Part shown: in pieces, positions 4,546 to 28,590 of the stretch
Layout: the number at the start of each line of letters is the position of its first letter
Numbering within the stretch: position 1 is the first letter of the stretch
Source of the DNA: Azorhizobium doebereinerae UFLA1-100
GTDB taxonomy: Bacteria; Pseudomonadota; Alphaproteobacteria; Rhizobiales; Xanthobacteraceae
Assembly (NCBI RefSeq): GCF_000473085.1
Contig: NZ_AXBA01000011.1
Span: 15,886-47,885, forward strand
DNA length: 32,000 nucleotides
Reading direction: 5' to 3'
The notes under the pieces: model-generated
Seen by the model: the letters and a program-made list of their open reading frames with translations, nothing else
What the model was told of the DNA's origin: nothing
Databases searched by the model: none
Position numbers and translations under genes: made by a program

Positions 4546-5919
4546 CTAAACGAGAGAGATGGCTTCTGCTTGTTCGAGAATGCGCCGCACCTCGGTGAGG
4601 GCCGTTTCCAATTGCGCCTCGGTAGTTGGGGCGCCCAGGCAGATGCGCACGCCGAGGCTTGCTGCGTCGAGCGGGCGCAACGCACCAGGCGGCGCCAGCG
4701 TGATGCCGGCCTGCGCAGATTGCGTGATCAGGGATGTGAGCGTGCGCCCGGCGGGCAGCGGCAGCCACACATGAAAGCCGGGTGGGGCGGAGACGGGGGA
4801 AAGCCAGCCGCTCAGCACCCGCCGCACGACCTGGTCGCGCAGCACCGCTTTCTCGCGCTTCAGCATGGCCTGGCGGGCAAGGCCGCCATTTTGGACCAGC
4901 CGCGACACCACTTCCGCCATAATCGGGGAAGCCATCCAGCCCGTGGCGCGCACCGCATTGATACAGCGGTCGCGGAAGGCGTCAGGCACGATCATGGCGC
5001 CGATGCGAAGACCCGGAGCCAGGCACTTTGCGAAGCTCATCGCATAGAAGCTTCGCTCGGGCGCCAGGGCCGAGACGGGGCGCGGCGGGGTCTGGAACAG
5101 GAAGGCGTAGGCGTCGTCCTCCAGCACGTAGGCGTCGCGGCGGCGGATAATCTCGGCGATGGCCAGCCGCCTCTCCGCCGGCATCACCGTGCCGGTGGGC
5201 GTCTGCAGGCTGGGCATGGTGTAGAGCACCCGCGCGCCGGTCTCCGCGAAGGCGGCGTCCAGCGCCTCCGGAACCAGGCCGTGAATGTCCATCGCCACGC
5301 CGTGCAGCCGGTAGCCGGACTGCGCGGACAGGGCGAGCATGCCGGAATAGGTCAGGCTTTCGGTCAGCACCGTGTCGCCGCGGGCGGCGACCATGCCGAT
5401 GGCGATGGATAAAGCGTGCTGGGCGCCGTGGGTGATGAACACCCGGTCCGGATCGGTGGCCATGCCGTGGGCGGCGAGCCAGGATGCCACCGCCGCGCGG
5501 TGGTCGGGCAGACCCTGGTGCGGCAGGTAGCCCAGCAGTCGGTCAATGCCGCCGTCCGCCACCACCTCTGCCAGCGTGGCGGCAATCAGCGCATCCTCGC
5601 CTGTGGCGGGGGGAACGTTGAGGGCGAGGTTGATGCCCTCGCGGCCGGTGGACTCGGTCTTATGGCCATTGAAGCGGCGGCGGAGCACGAAGGTGCCGCG
5701 ACCGACCTCGCCGGAGATCAGCCCGCGCTGCTCTGCTTCCGCATAGGCCTTGGAGATGGTGCCGACGCTGAGCCCCAGCCGCTCGGCCATGTCCCGCTGC
5801 GGCAGCAGGCGCGCGCCCGGCTTCACCTCGCCGGAGGCGATGTCGCTCTCCAACTGCTCCACGATCGCCATGTAGCGTGGGCCGCGGTGGTGCGAAAGCG
5901 CTGGTACCCAGTCGGTCAT
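4546..5919 (-). CDS. MocR-family transcriptional regulator (GntR wHTH fused to a PLP-dependent aminotransferase-like domain)
   Basis: N-terminal wHTH LPQRDMAERLGLSVGTISKAYAEAEQRGLISGEVGRGTFV. C-terminal fold-type-I aminotransferase-like domain with candidate PLP lysine in SFAKCLAPGLRIG. Divergent from operon 1. Confidence 0.93.
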   Translation of the reverse strand: MTDWVPALSHHRGPRYMAIVEQLESDIASGEVKPGARLLPQRDMAERLGLSVGTISKAYAEAEQRGLISGEVGRGTFVLRRRFNGHKTESTGREGINLALNVPPATGEDALIAATLAEVVADGGIDRLLGYLPHQGLPDHRAAVASWLAAHGMATDPDRVFITHGAQHALSIAIGMVAARGDTVLTESLTYSGMLALSAQSGYRLHGVAMDIHGLVPEALDAAFAETGARVLYTMPSLQTPTGTVMPAERRLAIAEIIRRRDAYVLEDDAYAFLFQTPPRPVSALAPERSFYAMSFAKCLAPGLRIGAMIVPDAFRDRCINAVRATGWMASPIMAEVVSRLVQNGGLARQAMLKREKAVLRDQVVRRVLSGWLSPVSAPPGFHVWLPLPAGRTLTSLITQSAQAGITLAPPGALRPLDAASLGVRICLGAPTTEAQLETALTEVRRILEQAEAISLV

Positions 5920-5955
5920 GAATCACCCTGTTCCATTCCCGAATAGTACAATCGT

Positions 5956-5972
5956 GAGATTGATGCAATCTC
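5956..5972. promoter_or_regulatory. Perfect 17-bp palindrome GAGATTG-ATG-CAATCTC in the mocR leader/promoter (candidate operator)
   Basis: Read directly: 7-bp arms with a 3-bp spacer, 37 nt upstream of the mocR ATG. It contains TTGATGCAAT, the exact reverse complement of ATTGCATCAA at 6075-6084. Confidence 0.4.
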
Positions 5973-6028
5973 AGTCAGGCCGGAAGCCTCTCCTGCACGG
6001 CAGACGAGTGCGGGCGCTCGCCGGTCGG

Positions 6029-6084
6029 TGCATTCCCGGCTGCATTGCGTTGCATTGCATCTAGAATGATATGCATTGCATCAA
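6029..6084. promoter_or_regulatory. Array of phased direct repeats TGCATT(G/C)C (candidate MocR binding sites)
   Basis: TGCATTCC at 6029, and TGCATTGC at 6041, 6051 and 6072 (start spacings 12, 10 and 21 bp). ATTGCATC occurs at 6054 and 6075, exactly 21 bp apart. Located in the divergent mocR / operon-1 intergenic region. Confidence 0.4.
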
Positions 6085-6210
6085 TTCATTCATCCGAAAA
6101 TACTCTATTGAAGTATGTCAATGATTGACAATCTGCGTTTTGACCCTTTATCGTCCTATTCAACAGCGCGACACGACGCTGCTTCTGATGTGTGTGGGGA
6201 TGATGGCCGC

Positions 6211-6534
6211 ATGATCTACGAGATCCGCATCTACGAGGCCTCCGAGGGGCGTGCCGACGCGATGCGTCAGCGGTTCATCGCCGAGGTGGTGCCCCGCCTG
6301 CCGGGCCACGGCATCGAGCTTCTCGGCGTGTTCACCGCGCCCGAGGAAGATGGCCGGCTCACCTATCTGACCCGCTTCTCCAGCGAGGACGCCCGCAAGC
6401 AGGCTTGGGCCTCTTTCGGCGCCGATCCCGACTGGAAAGCCGTCAAGGCTGCCAGCGAGGTCAATGGTCCGCTGCTCAAGGCCCAGACCGTCAATGTGCT
6501 GAGCCCGGCGGCCGCCGGCTTGCTGCTGGGCTGA
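6211..6534 (+). CDS. NIPSNAP-family protein (ferredoxin-like alpha+beta barrel)
   Basis: MIYEIRIYEASEGRADAMRQRF...LTYLTRFSSEDARKQAWASFGADPDWKAV is the typical single NIPSNAP domain (~107 aa). Start moved from 6115 to ATG 6211 because the 32 extra residues lie in the AT-rich promoter-like region and have no homology. Confidence 0.8.
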   Translation: MIYEIRIYEASEGRADAMRQRFIAEVVPRLPGHGIELLGVFTAPEEDGRLTYLTRFSSEDARKQAWASFGADPDWKAVKAASEVNGPLLKAQTVNVLSPAAAGLLLG

Positions 6535-6639
6535 CCGGCGGCGCCCGAGGGCGCCTCATGTCTGCGTGGTCGGAAAGCGTGCCCGGTATAGCCGGCGCGC
6601 GAAGGCCGCCCGAAGTCTGCGAACAAGGACGTTTCTTAA

Positions 6640-7515
6640 ATGAAGCCGGCGCCTTTTGACTATGTGCGACCGCAAAACCTTGCGGAGGCTTGCGCCATCC
6701 TCTCCGCCAACGAGGATGCGCGGGTCATCGCCGGAGGGCAGACGCTCGTGCCCATGCTGGCGATGCGGCTCGCCCGCCCCGCCGTGCTGGTGGACGTGCT
6801 GCGGCTGCCTGGTCTGTCCGGTATTCGCGTGGAGGAGGGCGCGCTGGTGATCGGCGCCACCACCCGCCAGGTGGAGGCGGAGCGCTCGCCGGACGTGGTG
6901 CGGCACCTGCCATTGCTGGCGGCAGCGCTTCCCTGGGTCGGCCATCCGCCGACCCGTAATCGCGGCACGGTCGGCGGTTCGCTCGCCAATGCCGATCCTT
7001 CAGCCGAGATTCCTCTTGTGGCGGTCACGCTGGATGCGGAGATCGTCACCGAGGACGAGGGCGGCATGCTGGCCATGTCGCCGGACGATTTCTTCATCGG
7101 CCCCATGCTCACGGCGGTGCCCATGGGTGGCCTCGTCACTCAGGTGCGCTTTCCCATCTGGCAGGGCGGGCGGATCGGTGTCGGCTTTCATGAGGTGAGC
7201 GCCCGCCGCTCCGACTTCGCCTTCGTCTCCGCCGCCGCCCAGGTGGAGGTTGGTGCTGACGGTGCCTGCACTCGTGTGGCGCTGGGCATCGGCGGTGTTG
7301 GCGACCGGCCGGTGAGGCTGGATGTGGGCTCGCTGATAGGCATGCGCATCGACGAGACAGTGCTGGAAGAGGCGGTGGAGGCCGCCGCCGGAGGTCTCGA
7401 TGCCACCTCCGATCTCCATGCGAGCGCCGAATATCGCCGGCGCGTCGCGCGTCTGCTGGGTGCCCGTGCGCTCGCCGACGCATATGCCGAAGCTTTGGCA
7501 AAGGAACACGGCTGA
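6640..7515 (+). CDS. Molybdenum hydroxylase FAD-binding (medium, CoxM/XdhB-like) subunit
   Basis: MKPAPFDYVRPQNLAEACAIL...VIAGGQTLVPMLAMRLARP is the FAD_binding_5/CO_deh_flav_C pattern. 291 aa. The stop overlaps the next start (TGATG). Confidence 0.93.
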   Translation: MKPAPFDYVRPQNLAEACAILSANEDARVIAGGQTLVPMLAMRLARPAVLVDVLRLPGLSGIRVEEGALVIGATTRQVEAERSPDVVRHLPLLAAALPWVGHPPTRNRGTVGGSLANADPSAEIPLVAVTLDAEIVTEDEGGMLAMSPDDFFIGPMLTAVPMGGLVTQVRFPIWQGGRIGVGFHEVSARRSDFAFVSAAAQVEVGADGACTRVALGIGGVGDRPVRLDVGSLIGMRIDETVLEEAVEAAAGGLDATSDLHASAEYRRRVARLLGARALADAYAEALAKEHG

Positions 7516-8111
7516 TGAAGGTCGCACTGCGCATCAACGGAACCTTGCGCGAGGCCGAGGTGGAGCCGCGCAAGACGCTGCTGGACACACTGCGCGAGAA
7601 TTTCCACCTCACCGGCGCCCATGCCGGCTGCGAGCACGGCGTGTGCGGCGCCTGCACCGTGCTGGTGGACGGCGCGCCCATGCGCTCCTGCCTGATGTTC
7701 GCCGTGCAGGCGGATGGCTATGAGATCACCACCATAGAGGGCCTTGCGCCCGCGCCGGGTGAGCTCTCCGTGCTCCAGGATGCCTTCTGCGAGACGCACG
7801 GCCTGCAATGCGGCTTCTGTACTCCCGGCATGATCCTGTCTTCCCACGCGCTCCTGGAGCGTGAGGGGAGCCCGAGCCGCCAGGAGATCGTGGAGGCCAT
7901 TTCGGGGAACATCTGCCGCTGCACCGGCTACGGCCAGATCATCGAGGCGGTGGAATTCGCCGCCGAGCGCCTGCGCAAGGCCAATGCGCCGCGAGGCTCC
8001 GCGCTGCCCCATGTGGGCGCCCCCGGCACCGAGCCGTCCGCGCAGGACGACGCTGCCATCGAGCACGGCATCCTGGAAGCCGCCACCGCCCATGACGGAG
8101 GCCCGAAGTGA
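7515..8111 (+). CDS. Molybdenum hydroxylase (2Fe-2S)-binding small (CoxS-like) subunit with a ~40-aa C-terminal extension
   Basis: Two cluster motifs: CEHGVCGACTV and CGFCTPGM...CRCTGY. Its stop overlaps the GTG start of the large subunit. Confidence 0.93.
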   Translation: MKVALRINGTLREAEVEPRKTLLDTLRENFHLTGAHAGCEHGVCGACTVLVDGAPMRSCLMFAVQADGYEITTIEGLAPAPGELSVLQDAFCETHGLQCGFCTPGMILSSHALLEREGSPSRQEIVEAISGNICRCTGYGQIIEAVEFAAERLRKANAPRGSALPHVGAPGTEPSAQDDAAIEHGILEAATAHDGGPK

Positions 8112-10519
8112 CAGCCGATCCCTCCACTTTCCGCTTCGTCTCCAGCAACCGCCGGGTGCGTGAGGATCGCCGCTTCGTGGTCGGTAACGGCCATTATGTC
8201 GCCGACGTGCCCCTGGAGGGCATGTTGCACGTGGCCATCGTCGGCTCGCAATATCCCGCCGCCAGGATCCTCGGCATCGACGCCTCCGCGGCGCTGGCCA
8301 TGCCGGGCGTGCACTATGTGCTCACCGGCGAGGAATTGGCCGGCGCCGTCGATCAATTGATGAACGGGCTCGATACCCCCAATGTGCGGCGCTTCCCGCT
8401 GGCCGTGGGGCAGGTGCGCTATGCTGGCGAATGGGTCGCCGCCGTGGTGGCTGACACGCGCGCCCTGGCGGAAGACGCCAGCGAAAAGGTGCGCGTCTCC
8501 TACGAGCCCTTGCCCTATCTCACCAAGGCGGGAGAGGCGCTGGAGCCTTCGAGCCCGCCGGTGCATCCGCCGCACGGCTCCAATGTGCTGCTGGACAAGA
8601 CCTTCGTGTGGGGCGAGGTGGAGAAGCACTTCACTGAGAGCCCGCGCCACCTGTCGTTCCGCGTCACCTGGGGGCGCAATTCCACCGTCCCCATCGAGAC
8701 TTTCGGCGTGGTCGCCTCCTGGGACCCGTGGCGCGAGATGCTGGACGTGTGGGCGTCTATCCAGATGCCAAAGTATCCCGACCAGATCGCCCGCGCCCTG
8801 CGCATTCCCGCCAACAACGTGCGCGTCCACCAGGACGTGGATGTGGGCGGCAGCTATGGGGTGAAGCGCGGCATCAAGCACACGGTGTTGGTTGCTCACC
8901 TCGCCCGCCGCCTCGGCCGCCCGGTGCGCCTGCTGGAGGATCGGCTGGAGAACATGCGCGGCGGCGACGCCCACGGTCCAGAACGCATCTTCGACGTGGA
9001 CGTGGCCTTCAATGACGAGGGCATCGTCAAGTCCATGAAGATGAAGGCGCTGGACAATGCGGGGGCCTATGCGGGCCGCGCGCCGTTCCAGCTCGGCAAG
9101 CCCATCGGCGCCATCGTCGGCCCCTACAAGATCGAGAGCGTGCAGTATCGCGCGCAATCGGTCACCACCAACAAGGCGGTGCAGGAAGCGGTGCGCGGCT
9201 TCGGCCAGTCGCCCACCAATTATGCCATCGAGACCGCCATCGACAAGGTGGCGCGGGCCTGCGGGCTGGACCGGGTGGAGATCCGCCGGCGCAACTTCAT
9301 CCGCGCCGACGAATTTCCCTACCTCATCCCCAGCGGCACCCGCTACGACAGCGGCGAGTACCACACCGTGGTGGACAAGGTGCTGGCGCATATCGATTAT
9401 CCCGCTCTTCAGGCGGAGCGTGATCGGTTGCGCGCCTCCGGCCTGCTGGCCGGCATCGGGATTGCCGCATGCCTGGAGCCCTCCGGCGGAAACTCATCTT
9501 TCGAGCCGTTGCTCAACGAAAAAAACCAGACCACCACTTGGATGGATTCCGCGCGCATCAACGTGGACGGACTGGGCTTCGTCACCGTCACCATTCATAC
9601 CACCTCGGCCGGACAGGGGCATGAGACCCTGGCCGCCACGGTGGTGGCCGAGGTGCTCCAGATCGATCCGGACCTCATCCGCATCGTGCGGCCGGATTCG
9701 CTCGCCTGCCTGCCGTCCAATACCCCGGTGGGCAGCCGCATGGCGATCATGCTCGGCGGTGCCTGCTTCCACGCGGCGCAGAAGCTGAAGGCCAAGCTCA
9801 CGAGGATCGGCGCGTTTCGCCTCGGCGTGGCGGCGGACGTCGCCACCTACGAGAACGGCGCGGTGGCAGACCCGGCGAGCGGCCGGAAGCTGGACTGGGC
9901 GGAGCTGGTGAACATCGCCCATCGCGGCTTCCACCTTTTGCCGCCGGACACCGAGCCGGGCCTTGAAGCCACCCATGTGATGCAGGTGCCCACGGGCGAC
10001 AAGCTGCCCGAGGGCGGCCGGGTGCAGATGTACCCCTGCCATTCGTTCGAATTCCATATGGTGCTGATCGCGCTCGACCCGGTGCTCGGCAAGCCGGAGA
10101 TCCGCCGTTATGTCATCGGCCATGACTGTGGCACGGTCATCAACCCGCACATCGTGAAGGGCATGACGTTGGGCGGCATCGCGCACGGCATTGGTGCCGC
10201 GCTGCTGGAAGAGTTCGTCTATGACGACGAGGGCCAGATGCTGACCCAGAGCTTCATGGACTATCTGCTGCCGTCCTCCCACGAGGTGCCGCAGGTGGAG
10301 ATCGTCCACCATTGCACGCCCTCGCCCTTCACAGTGTTCGGACAGAAGGGGTCGGGGGAGAGCGGCTATCTCGGTGCCCCCGCCGCCATCTCCGGCGCCC
10401 TGAACGACGCTGTCGCGGATCTAGGAATCTTCTTCGACAAACTGCCCATTCGCATCTTCGCGATCAGCGACGCGGTTGCCGCCGCGCGCGCCAATCCCAC
10501 GGGAAAGACTGCCGTATGA
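8108..10519 (+). CDS. Molybdopterin-binding large subunit of a xanthine dehydrogenase/aldehyde oxidase/CoxL-family hydroxylase (not CO dehydrogenase)
   Basis: 803 aa. Family-typical C-terminal catalytic-Glu motif GQKGSGESGYLGAP. GTG start in a GTGA overlap with the small subunit. Neither the VAYRCSFR nor the AYRGAGR CODH loop string is present. Confidence 0.93.
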   Translation: MTADPSTFRFVSSNRRVREDRRFVVGNGHYVADVPLEGMLHVAIVGSQYPAARILGIDASAALAMPGVHYVLTGEELAGAVDQLMNGLDTPNVRRFPLAVGQVRYAGEWVAAVVADTRALAEDASEKVRVSYEPLPYLTKAGEALEPSSPPVHPPHGSNVLLDKTFVWGEVEKHFTESPRHLSFRVTWGRNSTVPIETFGVVASWDPWREMLDVWASIQMPKYPDQIARALRIPANNVRVHQDVDVGGSYGVKRGIKHTVLVAHLARRLGRPVRLLEDRLENMRGGDAHGPERIFDVDVAFNDEGIVKSMKMKALDNAGAYAGRAPFQLGKPIGAIVGPYKIESVQYRAQSVTTNKAVQEAVRGFGQSPTNYAIETAIDKVARACGLDRVEIRRRNFIRADEFPYLIPSGTRYDSGEYHTVVDKVLAHIDYPALQAERDRLRASGLLAGIGIAACLEPSGGNSSFEPLLNEKNQTTTWMDSARINVDGLGFVTVTIHTTSAGQGHETLAATVVAEVLQIDPDLIRIVRPDSLACLPSNTPVGSRMAIMLGGACFHAAQKLKAKLTRIGAFRLGVAADVATYENGAVADPASGRKLDWAELVNIAHRGFHLLPPDTEPGLEATHVMQVPTGDKLPEGGRVQMYPCHSFEFHMVLIALDPVLGKPEIRRYVIGHDCGTVINPHIVKGMTLGGIAHGIGAALLEEFVYDDEGQMLTQSFMDYLLPSSHEVPQVEIVHHCTPSPFTVFGQKGSGESGYLGAPAAISGALNDAVADLGIFFDKLPIRIFAISDAVAAARANPTGKTAV

Positions 10520-11490
10520 TTATCGACTGCCATGCCCATCTGGTGCCGCCGACCCTGATCGAGGCGATCCGTTCGCAGGCCGCGAAATTCCCCTCCGTGC
10601 GCCTGGTCGAAGAGGGCGCCAGCCTCGGCTTCGCCTTCTCCGGCGGCAAGCCCACGCGCCCCGTCTCCAAGCCGCTCAGCGATCTCGCCGGCCGGCTGAA
10701 GTGGATGGACGAGCAGAAGGTGGACCGCCAGGTGGTGGGCGGCTGGCTCGACATGTTCGGCAACGACCTGCCTGTCTCCGAGGGGGTGGAATGGTCGCGT
10801 CTCATCAATGCCCATCTGGCGCAGGCCGGCAAGGACGAGCCGCGCTTCGTGCCGCTCGCCTGCGTGCCGTTGCAGGACGGCAAGCTCGCCGCGGAGGTGC
10901 TGCGCGAGGCCCACGGCCAGGGCTTCCGGGGCGCCATGATCGGCACCCAGCCCAAAGGCAAGGGCGGCGTGCTGGATGATCCGACCCTCGTGCCGTTCTG
11001 GGAAGCGGCGCACGAACTGGGCTCGATGATCTTCATCCACCCGGTGTTCGAGAGCGGCGACGATCGGGTCCATGACTACGGCATGGCCAATGCGGTTGGC
11101 CGCATCACCGATACGCTGATCGCGCTGTCTCGGCTGATCTATGCGGGCCACGTCACCCGCTATGACAAGGCCAAGATCATCGCCGGCATCGGCGGCGCCG
11201 CGCTGCCCTATATCATCGGCCGCCTGCGCCGGAATTACAGCCTCGACAAGACCCTGGGCGATCCCGACGCCGCGCTGGCCACGTTCTATTACGACACCAT
11301 CCTCCAGGACACGCGCGCGCTGCGCTACCTCGCGGACGTGGTGGGCCCGGAGCGCATCATGATGGGGTCGGACATGCCGTTTCCCATTGGCGACCTGGCG
11401 CCGCTCAACATCGTGTCAGAGACCAGCTTTTCCGATGCGGAGCGGGCGTCCATCAATGGCGGGCTCGCCCAGCGCCTCCTGGGCTTGTGA
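10516..11490 (+). CDS. Amidohydrolase-2 family protein (ACMSD/LigW/LigJ-type metal-dependent decarboxylase or hydratase)
   Basis: N-terminal HxH metal motif MIIDCHAHLVPP, then IFIHPV and MGSDMPFP near the C-terminus. ATG in an ATGA overlap with the large-subunit stop. The track ORF from 10312 is over-extended. Confidence 0.9.
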   Translation: MIIDCHAHLVPPTLIEAIRSQAAKFPSVRLVEEGASLGFAFSGGKPTRPVSKPLSDLAGRLKWMDEQKVDRQVVGGWLDMFGNDLPVSEGVEWSRLINAHLAQAGKDEPRFVPLACVPLQDGKLAAEVLREAHGQGFRGAMIGTQPKGKGGVLDDPTLVPFWEAAHELGSMIFIHPVFESGDDRVHDYGMANAVGRITDTLIALSRLIYAGHVTRYDKAKIIAGIGGAALPYIIGRLRRNYSLDKTLGDPDAALATFYYDTILQDTRALRYLADVVGPERIMMGSDMPFPIGDLAPLNIVSETSFSDAERASINGGLAQRLLGL

Positions 11491-11503
11491 GGAGGGCGCA
11501 GCC

Positions 11504-12792: not shown

Positions 12793-12816
12793 CAAAAAAG
12801 AACCAGGGAGGACGCC

Positions 12817-15391: not shown

Positions 15392-15431
15392 AACAGACGA
15401 CGGAAAGCCGCATCCCTCCAGGAGGTTCTCT

Positions 15432-16418: not shown

Positions 16419-16494
16419 GCCCCGAACCCTGCGTGCCTCCCCCGGCGCGCCGCCGGGTGCGAGGCCGCTTGCCTGCTTCCCAGGAGATCCCCCA

Positions 16495-18117: not shown

Positions 18118-18270
18118 GCGGCCCGGCCGATCGGCGGGGCTGCCCGGCCCGTGCGGGGCAACCGGCTGGTGGGCGCCCCCAGGCCATCGGCGCGCCGACG
18201 CTGTATGTCGCCGGCGGCGCGCACTGCCATCGGTTTCTGAGGAGCGCGCGTCGCCGGTGCGCCGGCCAAC

Positions 18271-21780: not shown

Positions 21781-22652
21781 CGGTGCGCTCCGAACAGGCC
21801 CTCGGGGCGCAGCGCCAGGGTGGCGAGCAGGATGGAGAAGGCGACCGCCGGTGCCCAGGACGGGCTAGCGAAAGCGGAGACCATGGATTCCGACACGCCG
21901 ATGAGGATGCCGGCGGCGATGGTGCCGGGCAGTGAGCCCATGCCCGCCAGCACCACCACCGCAAATGTGCGGCCGATCATCAGCCGCCCGCCGAACGGGT
22001 CCACGGGGCCGATGATGATGAGCGCGGCGCCGGCGACGACGGCGGTGGCCGCGGCGATGCCGAAGGCGTGGCGCTTGATCCAGCGCGGGTCGATGCCGCT
22101 CACCGACAGAGCGCGCTCGTCATGGGCCACCGCGCGGATGGCGATGCCCGCGTGGGTAAAGCGCAGGTAGAGCCAGAGCAGGAGGATCATGACCGGCGCC
22201 AGCAGCGCCGGCACCAGCAGCCGGTAGGGCAGGGACAGGAGGCCGATGGTCAGGCTCTGGCCCACATAGGCGACGCTGACCGATTGCTGGTTGGTGCCGA
22301 ACTTGATGAGCAGCGCCGTCTCCACCACGAGCGAGACGCCGAAGAACAAGGTGAGGGCATTCATGGTGTCGGCGGCGCCGCGCCGCTCGAACAGGCGAGC
22401 ATAGAATTCGTAGAAGCCAAGGCCGGCCACATAGAAGGGCACGAGGGCGACCAGCGCCACCAGCAGCGGATCGAAGCCACAGGAATTGCCCACGGCCACC
22501 ACATAGGCGCCGGCCACCACGAAGGCGGGATGGGCGATGTTCGGGATATGCAGCAGGCCGAACGTCACGGCGAGGCCGAGCGCCAGCGCGGCATAGATGC
22601 TGCCGAGCATCACGCCGGTGCCGATGGCGTTGACGAACTGGTCAAGAAACAT
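21777..22652 (-). CDS. HAAT-family ABC transporter permease, LivH-like
   Basis: 291-aa polytopic protein with N-terminus MFLDQFVNAIGTGVMLGSIYAALALGL, typical of LivH. Confidence 0.92.
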   Translation of the reverse strand: MFLDQFVNAIGTGVMLGSIYAALALGLAVTFGLLHIPNIAHPAFVVAGAYVVAVGNSCGFDPLLVALVALVPFYVAGLGFYEFYARLFERRGAADTMNALTLFFGVSLVVETALLIKFGTNQQSVSVAYVGQSLTIGLLSLPYRLLVPALLAPVMILLLWLYLRFTHAGIAIRAVAHDERALSVSGIDPRWIKRHAFGIAAATAVVAGAALIIIGPVDPFGGRLMIGRTFAVVVLAGMGSLPGTIAAGILIGVSESMVSAFASPSWAPAVAFSILLATLALRPEGLFGAHR

Positions 22653-22715
22653 GGTCGGCGCTCCGGCGGGGTGGAGGCGTACCGGCGGCGACCGCCGCCG
22701 GCGCGCGGAGGGCGA

Positions 22716-23984
22716 TCACGCGCCGCGCGCTTTGAGGAACGGCTGCGCCAGCTCGCCCGACTTCAGCGCCGGCGGATCGAGGATCACCTGCCGTCCCGCC
22801 TGTCGGAACTGCTCGATGTCATTGCCCTTGATGCCCTGGAACTGCGTCATCAGCACCCGCCGCTCGGTCCAGTCCCCCAGTTCGTTGAAGGTGGCGGTTC
22901 CGACCAGGGTCTTGACCGGATTGGCATGCAGCCAGGTCGCCATGGCCGCGCTTTCGGTGGAGCCGGTGGCCGTCACCGCGGCGGCGATCAGCTGACCCGC
23001 CACATAATAGAAGGGCGGGATGTAATAGCCGAGCGCGTCGAGCTTCTCCGGCACGGCGATGGCGGTGTAGCGGTCGAGGAAGCTGGTCACCGCCGGGGTG
23101 ACCATGGTGGGCTCCGGCACGAACAGGTTGAAGTTGACGATGCCGTTGAGCGAAGAGCCCAGCGCCTGGAGGGTCGCCGCATATTGCGGGCCCACCATGG
23201 CGCCGCCGAACAGCTTGACACTGTCGCCGATGCCCACTTCCGACAGGCCGCGGATCAGCGCGCTGCTGTCTGGCGGATAAGAGCAGACGAACACCGCGTC
23301 CGGCGTGGCGCCGCGCAGGTTCCGCAGGATGGCGGAAAAGTCGGAGGTGTTGGGCGGATAGCTCTGCTCGAACACCACCTCCTGCCCCAGTTCCTTCGCC
23401 GCCGTCTTGCCGCCGGCGGCAGAGACCTTGGCGAACTCCACGTCGGCGTTCAGCACCGCGATGCGCTTGCACCCCGCCGCCTTGCCCACCTCGAAGAAGC
23501 CGCGCGCCCAGTTCACCTTGGCGTCCGGCCCCCAGGGGGCGCTGTGGAAATAGCGGTCGCTCTTCACCCCGTCATTGCCGGCGAGGGCGAACATGCCGGC
23601 CATGAAGCGGCCGCGCTGCTTGATGAAGGGCATCACCGGGGCAGACAGCACCGCGCCATAAGGCGAGACGAGGATGTCCACCTTGTCGATGTCCACCAGC
23701 TTCGAATAGATGCTGGGGATCTGCGCCACAGTGCTCTGGTCGTCATAGGTGACCAGCTCCACCTGGCGGCCCAGCAGGCCACCGGCGGCGTTCACGTCAT
23801 CGCGCCAGAGCTGGAGGCCGACGAGCCCCGCCTTGGTGGAGGACAAGGGGCCGGTCATGGAAAAGCTGGCGCCGATGCGGATCGGCCGGTTCTGCGCGCG
23901 TCCCGTGGTCCACACGGCGGGCGCGGCCAAGGCGAGGCCGGTGGCGGCGGCGAGTTTGCCGAGGCGCCTGCGGGAAATGGTCAT
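22716..23984 (-). CDS. HAAT-family (LivK/Peripla_BP_6-type) substrate-binding protein with a twin-arginine-like signal
   Basis: MTISRRRLGKLAAATGLALAAPAVWTTGRAQ, then IRIGASFSMTGPLSSTKAG, typical of Leu/Ile/Val-binding-fold SBPs. GGGGAGGA RBS before ATG 23984. The track start at 24008 is rejected. Confidence 0.9.
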   Translation of the reverse strand: MTISRRRLGKLAAATGLALAAPAVWTTGRAQNRPIRIGASFSMTGPLSSTKAGLVGLQLWRDDVNAAGGLLGRQVELVTYDDQSTVAQIPSIYSKLVDIDKVDILVSPYGAVLSAPVMPFIKQRGRFMAGMFALAGNDGVKSDRYFHSAPWGPDAKVNWARGFFEVGKAAGCKRIAVLNADVEFAKVSAAGGKTAAKELGQEVVFEQSYPPNTSDFSAILRNLRGATPDAVFVCSYPPDSSALIRGLSEVGIGDSVKLFGGAMVGPQYAATLQALGSSLNGIVNFNLFVPEPTMVTPAVTSFLDRYTAIAVPEKLDALGYYIPPFYYVAGQLIAAAVTATGSTESAAMATWLHANPVKTLVGTATFNELGDWTERRVLMTQFQGIKGNDIEQFRQAGRQVILDPPALKSGELAQPFLKARGA

Positions 23985-24051
23985 GATGTCCTCCCCAATC
24001 CATGTCAACGAGGCGCTGTTCCCGCGCCATTGCCGCCGGTCGCGCCGCTGG

Positions 24052-24417
24052 TCAGAGCGCGACCGAGGGATAATCCTTGCCGTTCCAATGCTGGAGTCTG
24101 GCGGCGAACTCCCGCTGGAAGGCGAGGGGACCGCTCCGGTGCATGTAGTCTTCGTCGTACAAGGCGATGAAGATGGTCAGTGACAGGAAGAAATGGGCGC
24201 CCATTTCGAACAGCGCCACATAGTCGTGCGCGATGAGCGCTTCGCGCTCAGCCTCGGTGAAGCCGGTGACGGAGGTCCGCTCGGTCTCATTGAGGCGGGG
24301 GCCTATGGACTGTTCCCAGGTGGTCACGAAGGACCGTGGGTCCTCCTTGTAGCGCTGGAGGTAGTTCGGATTTCCATCCACGGTGTAGAGGAACTTGTTC
24401 ACATAATACTTGCTCAT
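24052..24417 (-). CDS. LigA-type small (alpha) subunit of a class III extradiol ring-cleavage dioxygenase
   Basis: 121 aa. The pattern YYVNKFLYTV...RYKEDPRSF...FTEAEREALIAHDYVALFEMGAHFF parallels the LigA consensus (YNLNQF...RF..D...Y...LT..E..A...RDY..M...G). Its start overlaps the stop of the LigB-like gene. Confidence 0.8.
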   Translation of the reverse strand: MSKYYVNKFLYTVDGNPNYLQRYKEDPRSFVTTWEQSIGPRLNETERTSVTGFTEAEREALIAHDYVALFEMGAHFFLSLTIFIALYDEDYMHRSGPLAFQREFAARLQHWNGKDYPSVAL

Positions 24418-25274
24418 GCGCGTCCCTCCTCCGGATACCAGGTCAGATAGGCTTCACGGGTGTGGTAGAGGTCGAGGCTGTCCACATAGGCGGCCTTCTG
24501 CGGCCCGGCGATGCCCATCATCAGGATGAGGTCCATGAAGCCGTGGGTGGCGTTGCCCGCCTTGGTCATGCTCTCATGGGTCACGTTCTCCAGGATCGCC
24601 TCGATGTTGCCGGTGGAGAGCCATTCGATGGCCTGGAGGTCGAACTCCGGGTCCGGGCCGTGCTCGCCGAACTGGCGCGGCCCGCCAAGCTCCAGCGACA
24701 GATGGCCCGAGCCCACGGCGGCGATGCGCTGGTCGGAGGGATAGGCGTCGATGACTTCGCGGATCGCCCGCCCGAGGTCCCAGAAGCGCCGGGGCGATGG
24801 CAGCGGCGGCGCGAAGATGTTGGTGTAGATGGGCACCACCGGCAAGTCCGCCTGCGGGCGGGTGGTGATGATCGGGCAGATGATGGAATGGTCGATCTTC
24901 AGCTCGTGGCTGAAGGAGAAATCGAAGCCCCGATCCAGAAGCCCCTGGTGCATGAAGCGCGAGAGATCCTCGTGCCCTTCCAGCACGTATTTCGGCAGGC
25001 CGAACTCGCGCTCCTCATTGTAGAAGGTGGCGTCGTAGCGGGGCGCCTTGCCAATGAGGAAGGTGGGGTAATTGTCCAGGAAGAATTGATGAAAGTGGTC
25101 CGCGCCGACCATTACCAGGATGTCGGGGGCGGCGCGCGTGAGGGTCTCGCGGTAGGCTTCCACCTTGCGCTTCCATTCCGCCGCCTGGGGGATCTGCTCC
25201 TCCACGGGGGCGGTGGTCGCCTTCAGGTAGAAGGGGTGATGGGTGGTGGCCAGTACGGCCGCCAGAGTCGCCAT
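24414..25274 (-). CDS. LigB-type catalytic (beta) subunit of a class III extradiol dioxygenase
   Basis: 286 aa. TTHHPFY, VMVGADHFHQFFLDNYPTFLIG, KIDHSIICP and AVGSGHLSLEL blocks of the LigB family. GGGGAGGA RBS before ATG 25274. The 578-aa track ORF is over-extended. Confidence 0.9.
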   Translation of the reverse strand: MATLAAVLATTHHPFYLKATTAPVEEQIPQAAEWKRKVEAYRETLTRAAPDILVMVGADHFHQFFLDNYPTFLIGKAPRYDATFYNEEREFGLPKYVLEGHEDLSRFMHQGLLDRGFDFSFSHELKIDHSIICPIITTRPQADLPVVPIYTNIFAPPLPSPRRFWDLGRAIREVIDAYPSDQRIAAVGSGHLSLELGGPRQFGEHGPDPEFDLQAIEWLSTGNIEAILENVTHESMTKAGNATHGFMDLILMMGIAGPQKAAYVDSLDLYHTREAYLTWYPEEGRA

Positions 25275-25315
25275 AATTTCCTCCCCGATGCGTTCTTGCT
25301 TGGCTGTTCTTGTGG

Positions 25316-26503
25316 TCAGGCCGTCTGTTCCAGTATCGCGGCCACGCCCCGCGCGGGCCAATTGTGCCGGTCGCCCCCCAAGGCGCGGCGGATCCGGGCG
25401 CCATCCTCGTCCACCGTCGGCGCCGCCTTCACCGCATGGGCGCGCTGATGGTCGAAGCTGAAGGCGGGGCGCACCGAGAAAGAGGCACCTTCCGTGCGTT
25501 CGTTCACCGGGACGATCACGCCGAGATGGTTCACCTGCGGGTCTTCGACCACGTCCGGAATGGAATTGATGGGCGCATAGGGCACATCGAACGCCGCGAA
25601 GCGCTCCACCCACTCCGCGCGGTCGCGCTGCGCGAAGATGGCGTTCAGTTCGTCCGACAGTTCCAGATAATTGTCGATGCGCTTCAGGCGGACGGAGAAG
25701 CGCAGGTCGGCGGCGAGCTGCGTCGCGCCGGTGGCCTCCACCAGCGCGTCCCAGAACTTGTCGAGGGAGGAGAGGTGGAAGGCGAACAGCTTCCCATCCT
25801 TGCAGCGCACGATATAGGCCTGCGCGAGGCGCGGCCGGTCGATGCCGGTGGGCTGCTCGCCGAGCGCGAAATAGCCCATGAAGGGCTCCACCGCGAAATG
25901 CATCATGGCTTCGAGCATGGAGATTTCCACCAGCCGCCCCTTGCCGGTGCGCCCTCGTTCGACCAGAGCCCCGGCAATGCCCAGCGCCGCATAGATGCCG
26001 GTGATGGCATCCGCCAGCGCCGGCCCGATGAAGCGCGGCTGCTCGGGATCGATGGCGACGCCCAGGAAGCCGCTCACCGCCTGCGCGACGGAATCGTAGA
26101 CCGGCCGCTTGGCATAAGGCCCGTCCTGGCCGAACCCGCTGATGGAACAATAGACGAGACGCGGATTGATGGCGTGCAGCGTCTCGGCGTCCGCCCCGAT
26201 GCGTCCCGCTGCGCCGGGGCGGAAGTTCTGGATGTAGACGTCGGCATTGCGGATGAGGTCGTAGAAGACCTCCTTGTCGGCCTCGGCCTTCATGTCCAGG
26301 CAGATGCTGCGCTTGTTGCGGTTGTAGGCCTGGAAATGGGCGCTGTAGAAGCCGGTCTTGAAGCTGCGGTAGGGATCGCCGTTGCCGGCGCTTTCCACCT
26401 TGATGACATCGGCACCGAGGTCCGCCAGCATCATGCCGGCGCAGGGGCCGGTGATGAAGGTGCCCTGTTCCACGATGCGCACGTCGTTGAGAACGCCGAA
26501 CAT
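25316..26503 (-). CDS. Family III CoA-transferase (CaiB/BaiF/Frc family)
   Basis: VRIVEQGTFITGPCAGMMLADLGADVIKVE N-terminal signature, and ALADAITG with the candidate catalytic Asp. Start set at MFGVLNDVRIV (ATG 26503) with GAGGAA upstream. Confidence 0.92.
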   Translation of the reverse strand: MFGVLNDVRIVEQGTFITGPCAGMMLADLGADVIKVESAGNGDPYRSFKTGFYSAHFQAYNRNKRSICLDMKAEADKEVFYDLIRNADVYIQNFRPGAAGRIGADAETLHAINPRLVYCSISGFGQDGPYAKRPVYDSVAQAVSGFLGVAIDPEQPRFIGPALADAITGIYAALGIAGALVERGRTGKGRLVEISMLEAMMHFAVEPFMGYFALGEQPTGIDRPRLAQAYIVRCKDGKLFAFHLSSLDKFWDALVEATGATQLAADLRFSVRLKRIDNYLELSDELNAIFAQRDRAEWVERFAAFDVPYAPINSIPDVVEDPQVNHLGVIVPVNERTEGASFSVRPAFSFDHQRAHAVKAAPTVDEDGARIRRALGGDRHNWPARGVAAILEQTA

Positions 26504-26513
26504 CCCGAATTCC

Positions 26514-27326
26514 TCAATTCTCGTTGGCGACGAAACCGTCAGGGGCGGGACCGTCATAGGTGATGGCCGACGAGGCGGCATGGGACATCAGGAAGCCGAT
26601 GGGGTGGACCTGCTCCTCCAGCAGATGGCCGATCAGGCCGGCGGCGCGCGCCAGCAGCGGCACCCCGCGCAGGGCGAGCAGCGGGTAGTCCGCATCCAGC
26701 AGCACGCAGGGGATGGCGCTGGATACGTTCATCACCAGTGGCCGGTTGATGAGCTCCGGCAGCAGCCGCTCCACCGCCAGCGCCACCTCGCAATGGCGCC
26801 CGTGCAGGCCGAGCTCGCGGGCGATGGCCAAAAGGCGCGCGGCGCGGGGATCGGCCCCCTTGTGCAGGGGGTGGCCGTAGCCGGGGATGGCGCGCTTGGC
26901 GGCGCGATAGCCGCGCACGATCTTGGCGATGGCCGCGTCCAGCGAAGCGCCGGTGGCGTCCTGCTCGGCGAGGATTTCCGCGAACAAAGCGCCGGCATCG
27001 GCGGAGGCGCCGAGAATGACGGAGCCGCATCCCAAAAGGCCGGCGGCCACCGCCCCCTGCAAGGCTTCGGGCGCAGAGGCCAATGTCATGCGCGCCGCCT
27101 GCACGCTGGGCACGAGGCCGTGCTCGGCGATGGCGACCAGGGTCGCGTCCAGCATGGCGCGTTGCGCATCGGTGGGCAGGGTGCCGGCGACGAGCAGCCA
27201 GGTGTGGTCGGTGAAGGTGATGCGGCCGATCAGGTCGTTCACCAGGTCATGGCCGCGGACGAGGATGGTATCGGGATTGGATCCCGAGATGCCCGTGGTG
27301 GGCGAGGTTTCAGCACCGATCTTCAA
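26514..27326 (-). CDS. Short citrate-synthase-like protein ('citryl-CoA lyase' family)
   Basis: AIAEHGLVPSVQAARM and PGYGHPLHKGADPRA correspond to the two catalytic-His blocks of citrate synthase. The protein is ~270 aa and lacks the citrate synthase N-terminal region. Start set at TTG 27326 (GGGAGA RBS 6-7 nt upstream). The longer track ORF runs through operator-like DNA and is Arg-rich noise. Confidence 0.78.
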   Translation of the reverse strand: MKIGAETSPTTGISGSNPDTILVRGHDLVNDLIGRITFTDHTWLLVAGTLPTDAQRAMLDATLVAIAEHGLVPSVQAARMTLASAPEALQGAVAAGLLGCGSVILGASADAGALFAEILAEQDATGASLDAAIAKIVRGYRAAKRAIPGYGHPLHKGADPRAARLLAIARELGLHGRHCEVALAVERLLPELINRPLVMNVSSAIPCVLLDADYPLLALRGVPLLARAAGLIGHLLEEQVHPIGFLMSHAASSAITYDGPAPDGFVANEN

Positions 27327-27510
27327 GGTTGTTCTCCCAGGTGGGCCGGGTCCGCCGACATGGTGGATCCGGCGCGCCTGAAGCCCGGCGCGGCGGCACA
27401 ATGCGCGGCCGCGGGCGCGGCACACGGCGGCGCAATCTCCACCACGACGGTGTTCGGGCGCATGGCGTTTTCTCCGGCAAGCTCCGCCCTGAACGGTACG
27501 GGCTTTATTA

Positions 27511-27538
27511 TTTTCGCTGAGCGAATTTTTATTCGCCA
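27511..27538. promoter_or_regulatory. Candidate IclR operator, site 1 (tripartite TTCGC half-site motif), upstream of operon 2
   Basis: TTTTCGCTGAGCGAATTTTTATTCGCCA = palindrome TTCGC-TGA-GCGAA plus a third half-site ATTCGCC. GCGAAT-TTTT-ATTCGC is also an inverted repeat. About 185 nt upstream of the TTG start at 27326. Confidence 0.45.
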
Positions 27539-27663
27539 TAAGCGTGCGGTGAGGCGGTGGGCATGTCAAGAGAAGAAGTGCAGTTTAAAGTCTGCGGCAT
27601 GGCGCACCGCAACATGCCGGCCAGCTTGACAGAGACGGCAATTCTGTCCCTACATCGAATATA

Positions 27664-27687
27664 TTTTCGTTAGACGAATATTCGCCA
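27664..27687. promoter_or_regulatory. Candidate IclR operator, site 2 (same motif), upstream of iclR
   Basis: TTTTCGTTAGACGAATATTCGCCA = palindrome TTCGT-TAG-ACGAA plus the overlapping perfect 10-bp palindrome CGAATATTCG and the terminal ATTCGCCA shared with site 1. It lies 46-64 nt upstream of the iclR start, just downstream of a TTGACA hexamer at 27626-27631. Confidence 0.45.
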
Positions 27688-27732
27688 CGTGTTCGGTAAC
27701 CGGAAGGATGCCTAGCATCCCGCAACGGCGGA

Positions 27733-28590
27733 GTGACACTCATTTCTGAGATGCCGGCCCCCAGCGCCAAGGCCGCGGACGAGCCTGTGCCCGACCGTGG
27801 CGGCACGGAATTCGTGGAGGCCCTTGCGCGTGGTCTCGCCGTTCTGGAGACCTTCGATGCGGGGCATTCGGAGATGTCGCTGACCGAGATCGCGCGGCGC
27901 ACGGGCATGAGCCCCGCGACCGCCCGGCGCAGCCTCCACACCTTGGCCGCGCTGGGCTATGTGCGTCATCACAACAAGCGCTATGTGCTGGCCGCACGCG
28001 TTCTCGCCCTCGGCGCGTCCTATCTGCGCGCCGCCCATGTGGAAGAGGCGCTGATGCCGGAGTTGCGGCGGCTCGTCGCCCAGTTCGGCGACGCCTCCTC
28101 CGTCAGCATTCTCGACGGGCCCAACATCCTCTACGTGGCTCATTGTTCGGAGCAGCGCGCGTCCCGGCCGGCGGCGACCATCGGCGCGACCTATCCGGGC
28201 TATGCCACCTCCATGGGGCGCGTGATGCTCTCGCGGATGCCGCCGGAAGCCATCGAGATGTATCTCGCCCAACTCCGCCCCGCCAAGCTCACCGAGCATA
28301 CCGAGACCGATATCGGAAAGCTGCGCCAGATCCTCGCCGAAGTCCGCCAGCTCGGCTATGCGGTGGTCGTGGATCAACTGGACTATGGGGTCACCTCGCT
28401 CGCCGTTCCCGTAAAGGATCACACCGGGCGGGTGGTCGCTGCCGTCAACAGTTCCGGCTATTCCGGAAAGCTCAGCGCCGACCGTCTCGTCGCCGAACGC
28501 CTGGCCGAATTGCAGATGTCCGCGGCGCGCATCACCCAGGTCTTCGCGCGCTACCCGGCGCTCCTGTATTCGCTCCGCCATGCCGGCTAG
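27733..28590 (+). CDS. IclR-family transcriptional regulator (PcaR/PobR-like)
   Basis: EFVEALARGLAVLETF, HTH MSLTEIARRTGMSPATARRSLHTLAALGYV, and a C-terminal IclR effector domain (VAAVNSSGY). GTG start at 27733, alternative ATG at 27751. Confidence 0.9.
   Translation: MTLISEMPAPSAKAADEPVPDRGGTEFVEALARGLAVLETFDAGHSEMSLTEIARRTGMSPATARRSLHTLAALGYVRHHNKRYVLAARVLALGASYLRAAHVEEALMPELRRLVAQFGDASSVSILDGPNILYVAHCSEQRASRPAATIGATYPGYATSMGRVMLSRMPPEAIEMYLAQLRPAKLTEHTETDIGKLRQILAEVRQLGYAVVVDQLDYGVTSLAVPVKDHTGRVVAAVNSSGYSGKLSADRLVAERLAELQMSAARITQVFARYPALLYSLRHAG

Follow-up and report, generated by a model that had tools for sequence, protein, structure and literature searches.

The 32,000-nucleotide stretch of Azorhizobium doebereinerae UFLA1-100 analysed here (contig NZ_AXBA01000011.1, positions 15,886 to 47,885; hereafter the window) carries two convergent catabolic operons, a left one on the plus strand (6211-18117) and a right one on the minus strand (27326-18271), with a gap of 154 bp between their ends. 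Genes were selected by third-position GC content and start-codon context and were annotated with Pfam and NCBIfam. Many genes in both operons overlap by 1-4 bases, with start and stop codons overlapping at 7515, 8108/8111, 10516/10519, 11977/11980, 13809/13812 and 14615/14618 in the left operon and at 20776/20779, 21777/21780 and 24414/24417 in the right operon. These overlaps are consistent with two real operons, and the tail-to-tail arrangement described in an earlier note on this DNA was confirmed on each strand. As that note had also claimed, each operon has its own divergent regulator, MocR at the left (4546-5919) and IclR at the right (27751-28590). Every gene class that it listed was recovered by Pfam, NCBIfam and start codons, in place or shifted by a few codons; the CoxG gene, which was absent from its list, belongs to the left operon as well. 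We refer to the MocR gene together with the left operon as module L, and to the IclR gene together with the genes from 27326 to 19336 as module R.

The MocR-type regulator (4546-5919, minus strand) combines a GntR helix-turn-helix domain with an aminotransferase-like domain that binds pyridoxal 5'-phosphate (PLP) (Pfam GntR and Aminotran_1_2). Its nearest NCBIfam model, EhuR, scored below the cut-off (424.7 against 480 bits). The intergenic region between this gene and the first gene of the left operon contains an array of TGCATTGCAT-like repeats (6029-6082, no strand; D1/D2), with three to four copies spaced 10-22 nt apart and an AT-rich stretch after them. This array is a candidate MocR operator. 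The left operon, whose genes are all on the plus strand, begins with a gene for a small NIPSNAP-family protein (6211-6534; Pfam NIPSNAP, E 3.9e-14). It is followed by the genes for a CoxM-like FAD-binding medium subunit (6640-7515; FAD_binding_5 and CO_deh_flav_C), a CoxS-like [2Fe-2S] small subunit (7515-8111; Fer2 and Fer2_2) and a CoxL-like molybdopterin large subunit of 803 aa (8108-10519; Ald_Xan_dh_C, MoCoBD_1 and MoCoBD_2). All domains of the three subunits were above the Pfam gathering thresholds and lie in consecutive, overlapping genes, so that the enzyme is a molybdenum (Mo) hydroxylase of the xanthine oxidase family.

Every NCBIfam equivalog was far below its cut-off for the large subunit, including the two for aerobic carbon monoxide dehydrogenase (CODH), TIGR02416 (404 against 991 bits) and NF040766 (432 against 950 bits). 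The large subunit lacks the CODH active-site loop in both of its forms (VAYRCSFR in form I, AYRGAGR in form II) and contains neither AYR nor YRC, and the description of the enzyme as a non-CODH Mo hydroxylase in the earlier note was correct. Its best match in the PDB was quinoline 2-oxidoreductase (1t3q, E 2e-113), and CODH and 6-hydroxypseudooxynicotine dehydrogenase followed closely. The FAD and iron-sulfur (FeS) subunits had their top NCBIfam scores against aldehyde (glyceraldehyde) dehydrogenase models.

The next gene encodes an ACMSD-like protein of the Amidohydrolase_2 family (10516-11490; Pfam PF04909). Its 13 best matches in the PDB are ACMSD entries (E 8e-32 to 1e-27), and IDCase, LigW and gamma-resorcylate decarboxylase come next. 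The N-terminal HxH is present (H6/H8). It is a probable metal-dependent, non-oxidative decarboxylase of the ACMSD type. A CoxG/SRPBCC protein (11504-11980; Pfam COXG, E 2.2e-22) comes after it and is a possible fourth component of the Mo hydroxylase. The PcaD-like alpha/beta hydrolase (11977-12792) has a GLSLGG nucleophile elbow and passed the enol-lactonase model TIGR02427 (271.2 bits against a cut-off of 255.85). This is the score expected of PcaD of the beta-ketoadipate pathway, and no other pca gene was found in the window. An ATP-binding cassette (ABC) importer of the NMT1 type (12817-16418; Pfam NMT1, BPD_transp_1 and ABC_tran) comprises a binding protein (12817-13812), a permease (13809-14618), an ATPase (14615-15391) and a second binding protein (15432-16418). 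The first binding protein had no PDB relative at E<=1e-3, ThiY and THI5 included. The last gene of the left operon (16495-18117) encodes a UbiD-family decarboxylase (Pfam UbiD, E 2e-49, and UbiD_C), an enzyme type that uses prenylated flavin mononucleotide (prFMN). All NCBIfam equivalogs were below cut-off for this protein, and its best PDB matches, E. coli UbiD and HmfF, were equidistant at about E 1e-30. It contains the motifs NMGTYR and EAPFGESHGH, which we take, from Fdc1 and UbiD, to be the catalytic Arg and Glu motifs. A UbiX gene was not found in the window.

In the right operon, read on the minus strand, the first gene encodes a short citrate-synthase-like protein of the citryl-CoA-lyase family (26514-27326; Pfam Citrate_synt, C-terminal part), which passed the NCBIfam subfamily model NF004868 (313.7 bits against a cut-off of 193). 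It is followed by a family III (CaiB/BaiF) CoA-transferase (25316-26503; CoA_transf_3, E 4e-107), which reached none of the NCBIfam equivalogs (240 of the required 750 bits in one case and 214 of 442 in another). The next two genes encode a protein of the LigB superfamily, here called LigB' (24414-25274; Pfam LigB, E 6.6e-28, all NCBIfam models below cut-off), and a small LigA-like partner of 121 aa, LigA' (24052-24417), which was sub-threshold for Pfam LigA (E 0.0025, 18.4 bits against a cut-off of 25.3). Behind them lies a LIV-type ABC importer, LivKHMGF (19336-23984; ABC_tran, BPD_transp_2 and Peripla_BP_6), with a LivK-type binding protein (22716-23984), LivH (21777-22652), LivM (20776-21780), LivG (20054-20779) and LivF (19336-20073). 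The operon ends with a D-2-hydroxyacid dehydrogenase gene (18271-19233, with the start at 19233 or 19278; 2-Hacid_dh_C, E 1.2e-54). The regulator on the opposite, plus strand (27751-28590; HTH_IclR and IclR_C) belongs to the IclR family and is PcaR/PobR-like; its score against TIGR02431 was below the cut-off (239 against 284.75 bits).

The best PDB matches of LigB' were the gallate dioxygenase DesB and LigB (E about 1e-19). At the position where LigB and DesB have GTGG(L/M)SHQ with the catalytic histidine, LigB' has GSGHLSLE, so that a histidine stands three residues upstream of the lost catalytic one, and the region of the iron ligand Glu242 reads GNATHGF. In orthologues that are 70-90% identical (L001 and L086-L088), both G(S/T)GHLSLE and the altered Glu242 region are invariant, and a paralogue of R. 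rhizogenes K84 (37%) shares the GH(M)S feature. Orthologues of LigB' are 82-90% identical between Alphaproteobacteria and Actinobacteria and carry automatic names only. The earlier note had called this pair a LigAB extradiol dioxygenase. The LigB domain bears this out in part, but the catalytic histidine motif is replaced, LigA is sub-threshold and the partners of the lig pathway are missing. Membership among the LigAB and gallate dioxygenases was therefore rejected, as the SHQ motif and the Glu242 region are replaced and the NCBIfam equivalogs are far below cut-off.

The distribution of the two operons was examined from both sides. Orthologues of the window UbiD are 76-98% identical to it and span Alpha-, Beta- and Gammaproteobacteria. 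At least 577 stretches with a UbiD relative are present in species-representative genomes, and the loci of 80 such genomes (UbiD 76-89% identical) were searched with 10-kb flanks using all 24 window proteins. For LigB', 84 loci were compared, consisting of 80 metagenome and 4 plasmid loci. Right-operon genes were found in none of the 80 UbiD loci, and left-operon genes in none of the 84 LigB' loci. The sole resemblances to the right operon in the UbiD loci were generic ABC-ATPase similarity and two isolated LivK/LivF-type matches (44% and 41%), both in loci without any other right-operon gene. In the closest relative, an ENA contig (L089) with a UbiD at 97% identity, the left operon is complete, and the genes after it are LysR, KatG, an integrase and RepC. 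Relatives with an 89-90% identical UbiD, including Aquabacter sp. CN5-332, have the whole left operon as well, yet with other right-hand neighbours. Module R occurs by itself on plasmids of Sinorhizobium sp. B11, Aminobacter sp. MSH1 and Martelella, and a megablast search of plasmids with the 24-kb region matched nothing beyond its four-gene core (about 78% identity).

The earlier note had joined the two operons in one pathway, in which a single substrate would be subjected to Mo hydroxylation, decarboxylations, extradiol cleavage by LigAB, hydrolysis, CoA activation and cleavage by the lyase. These steps are chemically coherent in series, the convergent operons lie just 154 bp apart, and module L has no ring-cleaving enzyme while module R has one. 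Moreover, the window copy of module R lacks an aminohydrolase that accompanies 35 of the 84 copies, and it could accept a ready-made hydroxylated ring. However, each operon has a separate regulator and a separate importer, module R is complete and alone on several plasmids, and the closest relatives (89-97% UbiD identity) have different neighbours. With a co-occurrence of 0/80 and 0/84, a single pathway is not supported and seems to us quite improbable. Synteny of the two operons was absent in relatives, an outcome that the earlier note had itself placed among the grounds for giving up a single island, and their juxtaposition was seen only in this genome. We suggest that the locus consists of two independent catabolic modules that are adjacent by an accident of genome arrangement. 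Together with the mechanisms proposed below for modules L and R, we give this reading a probability of about 55%.

The conserved core of module L is CoxM-CoxS-CoxL-amidohydrolase_2-UbiD, and this cassette is widespread. The amidohydrolase-2 gene was found in 42 of the 80 UbiD loci and directly adjoins UbiD in 22; the Mo large subunit was found in 40 loci, in 38 of them together with the amidohydrolase-2. Orthologues of the FAD and [2Fe-2S] subunits were present in 36 and 37 loci, respectively. The remaining genes are more variable. CoxG was found in 4 of the 80 loci, the NMT1-type importer genes in 14-16, and a UbiX gene beside the UbiD orthologue in 14. The NMT1-type ABC importer occurs in Xanthobacteraceae and other Hyphomicrobiales, and TctC systems stand in its place elsewhere, with TctC and the tripartite tricarboxylate transporter in Betaproteobacteria and Roseicyclus; most cassettes have TctC. 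A MocR gene accompanies only 3 of the 80 cassettes, its orthologue being divergent from the cassette also in Roseicyclus (L075, L085) and Propylenella (L012). The PcaD-like orthologue is likewise limited to Aquabacter-type and Roseicyclus loci (3/80), and the NIPSNAP gene is kept in Aquabacter and Roseicyclus loci. In Roseicyclus the gene order is MocR<NIPSNAP-CoxMSL-AH2-CoxG-PcaD-like-UbiX-UbiD, where AH2 is the amidohydrolase-2. This order shows the accessory genes of the window to be a conserved extended version of the cassette, with UbiX supplied in cis elsewhere.

The surroundings of the cassette in other genomes give some indication of its substrate. In related betaproteobacterial loci, a TctC receptor is encoded between the amidohydrolase-2 and UbiD, and its nearest PDB relatives are a terephthalate-binding protein (top), BugD and Bug27; it matches terephthalate-, aspartate- and nicotinate-type receptors about equally, and the ligand is not discriminated. 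Bug27 and Bug69 have been reported to bind quinolinate (PMC11452294). In metagenome-assembled genomes (MAGs) of Stellaceae/Rhodospirillales, the cassette is immediately preceded, on its own strand, by genes for a FAD monooxygenase and a small Rieske-like protein. Beside the cassette, the Stellaceae-type loci also carry an isochorismatase-type amidase, an alpha/beta hydrolase, two gentisate-dioxygenase-like cupins and an amidase. This set of neighbours resembles hydroxypyridine catabolism of the maleamate type, a likeness that is suggestive only. The earlier note had hinted at an N-heterocyclic (di)carboxylate as the substrate of the whole locus. For the left operon this finds some support in the amidase/cupin context of the Stellaceae type and in the TctC carboxylate receptors found elsewhere.

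Several other arrangements were observed around the relatives of module L genes. In the closest relative (L089), the left operon lies within a few kb of a PIN/antitoxin pair, a phage-type integrase and a RepC-like replication protein, which suggests that it is on a plasmid or integrative element. UbiD orthologues with 76-79% identity stand without a Mo enzyme in L031, L060, L062, L070, L072 and L078 and in L044, L055, L059 and L063. In one context, amidohydrolase-2, TctC and UbiD form a small unit with a divergent FAD monooxygenase, adjoining queA-tgt; the other contains a FAD monooxygenase, an amidase, a fused permease of the tripartite ATP-independent periplasmic (TRAP) type, a TAXI-type binding protein and DUF2390. 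Four betaproteobacterial MAGs (L015, L020, L026 and L038) carry a second, divergently placed UbiD paralogue and TctC genes, with three putative decarboxylases per locus. On a plasmid of Neorhizobium petrolearium (L004), a UbiD paralogue lies in another Mo-enzyme cluster without an amidohydrolase-2, and the situation is similar in S. fredii megaplasmids; these paralogues are 56-57% identical to the window UbiD. The N. petrolearium cluster consists of MarR, CoxM, CoxS, CoxG, an ABC binding protein, two molybdopterin large subunits, GntR and UbiX.

In tblastn searches of plasmids, the large subunit found one orthologue, at 61% identity, in Burkholderia sp. PAMC 26561 (L175), and the match in C. 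basilensis was not the hmf cluster. The PAMC 26561 gene is followed by those for an alpha/beta hydrolase, an enoyl-CoA hydratase, CoxG and XdhC, with a succinate-semialdehyde dehydrogenase gene nearby; this plasmid locus has neither an amidohydrolase-2 nor UbiD. For the amidohydrolase-2, nothing above 32% was found on plasmids, the best matches being ACMSD genes.

The statement in the earlier note that no complete characterised pathway is matched holds for each module. The required partner domains of the pic, nic, lig and pca pathways were absent from the window by Pfam and NCBIfam, published characterisation of either module was not found in a literature search, and a paper on the dipicolinate (dip) cluster gave no link to them. 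The picolinate pathway is one of the nearest known systems. In Alcaligenes faecalis JQ135, PicA, a CoxLMS-type Mo enzyme, hydroxylates next to the ring nitrogen, and the amidohydrolase-2 decarboxylase PicC acts after it (10.1101/530550). Module L shares this pair of a Mo hydroxylase and an amidohydrolase-2 decarboxylase, as compared by gene family. The monooxygenase PicB, the dioxygenase PicD, the amidase PicF and the isomerase PicG have no counterpart in the window, which has an additional UbiD; of a pic set it contains a Mo hydroxylase like PicA and one gene each for an amidohydrolase-2 and an alpha/beta hydrolase. The quinolinate hydroxylase QuiA1A2A3A4 of strain JQ191 has been reported to be a four-component enzyme (PMC11789743), which recalls the CoxMSL and CoxG proteins of module L.

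From these comparisons we infer a substrate class, an order of steps and roles for the accessory genes of module L. The module would most likely import an N-heteroaromatic polycarboxylate, hydroxylate it with the Mo enzyme and decarboxylate it twice without oxidation. On chemical reasoning only, pyridine-2,5-dicarboxylate is the best fit as substrate and quinolinate (the 2,3-isomer) the next. The anionic polycarboxylate would be taken up by the NMT1-type ABC importer here and by TctC systems in other lineages. The Mo enzyme, possibly with CoxG as its fourth component, would then place a water-derived hydroxyl group beside the ring nitrogen, in the manner of PicA and QuiA. The amidohydrolase-2 would remove a carboxyl group ortho or para to the newly introduced hydroxyl or oxo function, which matches what enzymes of its clade, PicC included, usually act on. 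UbiD, with prFMN made by a UbiX encoded elsewhere, would remove a carboxyl group alpha to the heteroatom, a position at which HmfF, pyrrole-2-carboxylate decarboxylase and xanthine-8-carboxylate decarboxylase also act. The PcaD-like hydrolase and the NIPSNAP protein may act on a later intermediate, by deformylation or by hydrolysis of a lactone or lactam. As there is no oxygenase in the left operon, ring fission would be encoded elsewhere.

The conserved core of module R is formed by the citryl-CoA-lyase-like protein, the CoA-transferase, LigB' and LigA', with IclR. LigA' adjoins LigB' in 78 of the 84 loci, and the CoA-transferase, the citryl-CoA-lyase-like protein and IclR were found in 48, 43 and 40 of them, many of the contigs being short. 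A TRZ/ATZ/deaminase-type amidohydrolase of 488 aa, which matches the NCBIfam model PRK08204 ("hypothetical protein"; 407.6 bits against a cut-off of 391), is a usual companion of the module elsewhere and was present in 35 of the 84 loci, again with many short contigs, and an NADPH-FMN reductase is often part of the module elsewhere. The window copy is trimmed and has neither of the two. The 2-hydroxyacid dehydrogenase that ends the right operon was found in none of the 84 loci and is not part of the conserved module. A LIV-type importer accompanies module R also in Sinorhizobium sp. B11, L102 and L135, while TRAP or major facilitator superfamily transporters do so elsewhere.

The order of LigB' followed by a small LigA-like gene corresponds to the B-then-A domain order of fused gallate dioxygenases, and in this module R resembles LigAB, DesB and GalA. 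It differs in having no ligC/I/J/K or galB/C/D, and a CoA-transferase and a citryl-CoA-lyase-like enzyme instead. PydA of Rhizobium sp. TAL1145 is a LigB-family dioxygenase of 3-hydroxy-4-pyridone (3,4-dihydroxypyridine) (PMC7356986, PMC3637104). LigB' is of the same family, and the LigB' locus of R. johnstonii has an alpha/beta hydrolase and a FAH-family neighbour, as in the kpi cluster. Identity with PydA was rejected on the published motifs, with which alone the comparison was made: the signature DDHFENH/EWICGM is absent from LigB', which has GADHFHQF and no EWICGM. In the mechanism that we propose for module R, the deaminase, where present, would yield a hydroxylated (hetero)aromatic acid, and LigB'A' would open this acid by LigB-type ring fission or a related reaction. 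The polycarboxylic ring-fission product would then be converted to a CoA thioester and split by the lyase in a retro-Claisen reaction.

Some observations weigh against the two mechanisms. No oxygenase or ring-opening enzyme was found in module L of the window, which leaves the pathway open-ended. MocR regulators usually sense amines rather than pyridine acids, and the model leaves MocR unexplained. The neighbours that point to an N-heterocycle all belong to a single group of related MAGs, and common descent could explain them instead of function. Around half of the UbiD orthologues have no Mo enzyme and lie beside FAD monooxygenases, another amidohydrolase-2, genes of TctC or TRAP type and DUF2390. 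It suggests that UbiD may act on a shared intermediate that is reached by more than one route, and not on the imported acid. Because many of the metagenome contigs are short, the counts of co-occurrence represent minimum values. For module R, the altered motif of the catalytic histidine makes a dioxygenase activity of LigB' uncertain.

Three other readings of module L were considered. It may be a CoA-independent furan route, in which UbiD would convert furan-2,5-dicarboxylate to 2-furoate, the Mo enzyme would hydroxylate C5, and the enol-lactone 5-oxo-4,5-dihydrofuran-2-carboxylate would be opened to 2-oxoglutarate by the PcaD-like lactonase or the amidohydrolase-2. Such a route needs no oxygenase and closes inside the operon, the score of the hydrolase exceeds the cut-off of the enol-lactonase model TIGR02427, UbiD has HmfF as one of its best PDB matches, and the TctC receptor of related loci has a terephthalate-binding protein as its top PDB relative. 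The hmf pathway of Cupriavidus basilensis HMF14 also pairs a three-subunit Mo dehydrogenase, the furoyl-CoA dehydrogenase HmfABC, with a UbiD-family decarboxylase (HmfF/G) that acts on a heteroaromatic dicarboxylate. However, furoate hydroxylation as it is known proceeds on the CoA thioester, and the hmf route uses a CoA ligase and an enoyl-CoA-hydratase-type hydrolase, both of which are missing from module L. The window UbiD matches HmfF no better than E. coli UbiD (about 1e-30), the amidohydrolase-2 is nearest to decarboxylases and not to LigI-type lactonases, the PcaD-like gene occurs in only 3 of the 80 cassettes, and Stellaceae-type loci contain amidases. We regard both the furan route and its proposed end in 2-oxoglutarate as unlikely. 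It is rather improbable that the Mo enzyme is an aldehyde oxidase and that module L catabolises a vitamin-derived heterocycle, the decarboxylases removing the carboxyl groups so formed, either from vitamin B6 via pyridine-4,5-dicarboxylate or from the thiamine pyrimidine via 4-amino-2-methylpyrimidine-5-carboxylate. This would account for a PLP-dependent, amine-sensing regulator of the MocR type, for binding proteins of the NMT1/THI5 family and for the best scores of the FAD and FeS subunits, which are against aldehyde (glyceraldehyde) dehydrogenase models, and the substrates of ACMSD and IDCase are likewise amino- or oxo-substituted carboxylates. But no thiamine pyrophosphate or other riboswitch was matched by Rfam in the window, the first binding protein has no detectable PDB relative even in ThiY or THI5, the operon offers no candidate for the alcohol-oxidising steps, and most cassettes have TctC rather than NMT1, with a MocR gene in just 3 of 80.

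The third of these readings takes module L as a version of the pterin/lumazine pathway, with hydroxylation by a LuDH, a ring-contracting amidohydrolase-2 isomerase and a UbiD-type xanthine-8-carboxylate decarboxylase. Cluster I of Cupriavidus sp. LA-1, described in 2025, combines the same three enzyme families, namely the Mo enzyme LuDH, the amidohydrolase-2 DHLI and the UbiD enzyme XCDC (PMC12391406). Module L thus resembles it in having a Mo dehydrogenase, an amidohydrolase-2 enzyme and a UbiD/prFMN decarboxylase in one cluster, but the window has a single amidohydrolase-2 in place of an alpha/beta pair, and no GTP-binding protein, UbiX or deaminase. The GTPase is reported to be a constant companion of the isomerase (PMC12391406). 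A complete lumazine-type cluster was found on pSymB of S. meliloti (CP140944.1, 1561642-1573127; L094), and its architecture matches that of the published LA-1 cluster. It encodes two amidohydrolase subunits (MIIDTHLHP and MIIDISCYP), only one of which has HxH, and also UbiD, UbiX, an NCS2 permease, a GTP-binding protein, the L, S and M subunits of a xanthine dehydrogenase, and GntR. By BLASTP, the window proteins were distant from it, with 26% identity for UbiD, 28% for the large subunit, 33% for the FAD subunit and 53% for the FeS subunit, and no match for the amidohydrolase-2. Orthology was rejected on this comparison, the window cassette being analogous to the lumazine cluster, and we consider the lumazine reading very improbable.

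A bolder form of the reading that we prefer, two independent modules with pyridine-type chemistry in module L, is put forward tentatively. Modules L and R may be undescribed and ecologically widespread systems, in which module L is a CoA- and oxygenase-independent funnel to a hydroxypyridine and module R a new ring-fission route. Roughly half of the 80 UbiD loci carry the full cassette. For the funnel, the candidates are quinolinate, pyridine dicarboxylates derived from lignin or black carbon, or a related ring, and it would represent a new substrate class for prFMN enzymes. Equally tentative, and joined to the funnel, is the view that module R works with a relocated catalytic histidine and with a CoA-dependent C-C lyase that replaces the hydratase and aldolase. 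In this genome the modules may have become coupled secondarily, the hydroxylated heterocycle from module L entering a module R that has no aminohydrolase of its own.

The remaining features of the window are as follows. GC-rich inverted repeats (I1-I3; 18118-18222, no strand) were detected by a repeat search in the gap between the convergent operons, and a consensus scan of this gap found no T-tract terminator. No tRNA, Rfam element, integrase or mobile-element gene was found in the window, GC content is 0.60-0.72 throughout and no compositional break was seen; the region is not marked as an island in the mobile-element sense. The kilobase with the lowest GC (0.60) covers bases 4001-5000. A gene for a methyl-accepting chemotaxis protein (2108-4210, minus strand) adjoins the MocR gene, and a 251-aa open reading frame (1671-2426, plus strand) without a Pfam or NCBIfam match overlaps the 3' end of the chemotaxis gene by about 320 nt and may be spurious. 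Directly to the right of the IclR gene (28603-31969, minus strand) are a sensor kinase (sCache_3_3, HAMP, HisKA and HATPase) and a sigma-54-dependent response regulator. This pair is DctB/DctD-like and might sense dicarboxylates.

Taken together, the interest lies in the modules themselves, both of which are widespread, rather than in the locus. The left module would be a new form of heteroaromatic acid catabolism that starts with a Mo hydroxylase, and the right one is an uncharacterised module of a LigB variant and a CoA lyase. To split the island in two changes what should be tested, each part having its own regulator, importer and distribution. Cultured strains with module L only are Aquabacter sp. 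CN5-332, Roseicyclus sediminis and Propylenella binzhouense, and those with module R only are Sinorhizobium sp. B11, Aminobacter sp. MSH1 and Martelella mediterranea. The LigB' family, with its altered motif and 82-90% identity between Alphaproteobacteria and Actinobacteria, is a well-defined target for enzymology. The UbiD orthologue is conserved at 76-90% across proteobacterial classes and soil MAGs contain it in abundance, so that its substrate is probably a common natural compound. If the proposed chemistry is true, module L would be a third case, after lumazine, of a Mo hydroxylase combined with an amidohydrolase-2 and a prFMN decarboxylase, and this would suggest a general strategy for carboxylated N-heterocycles.

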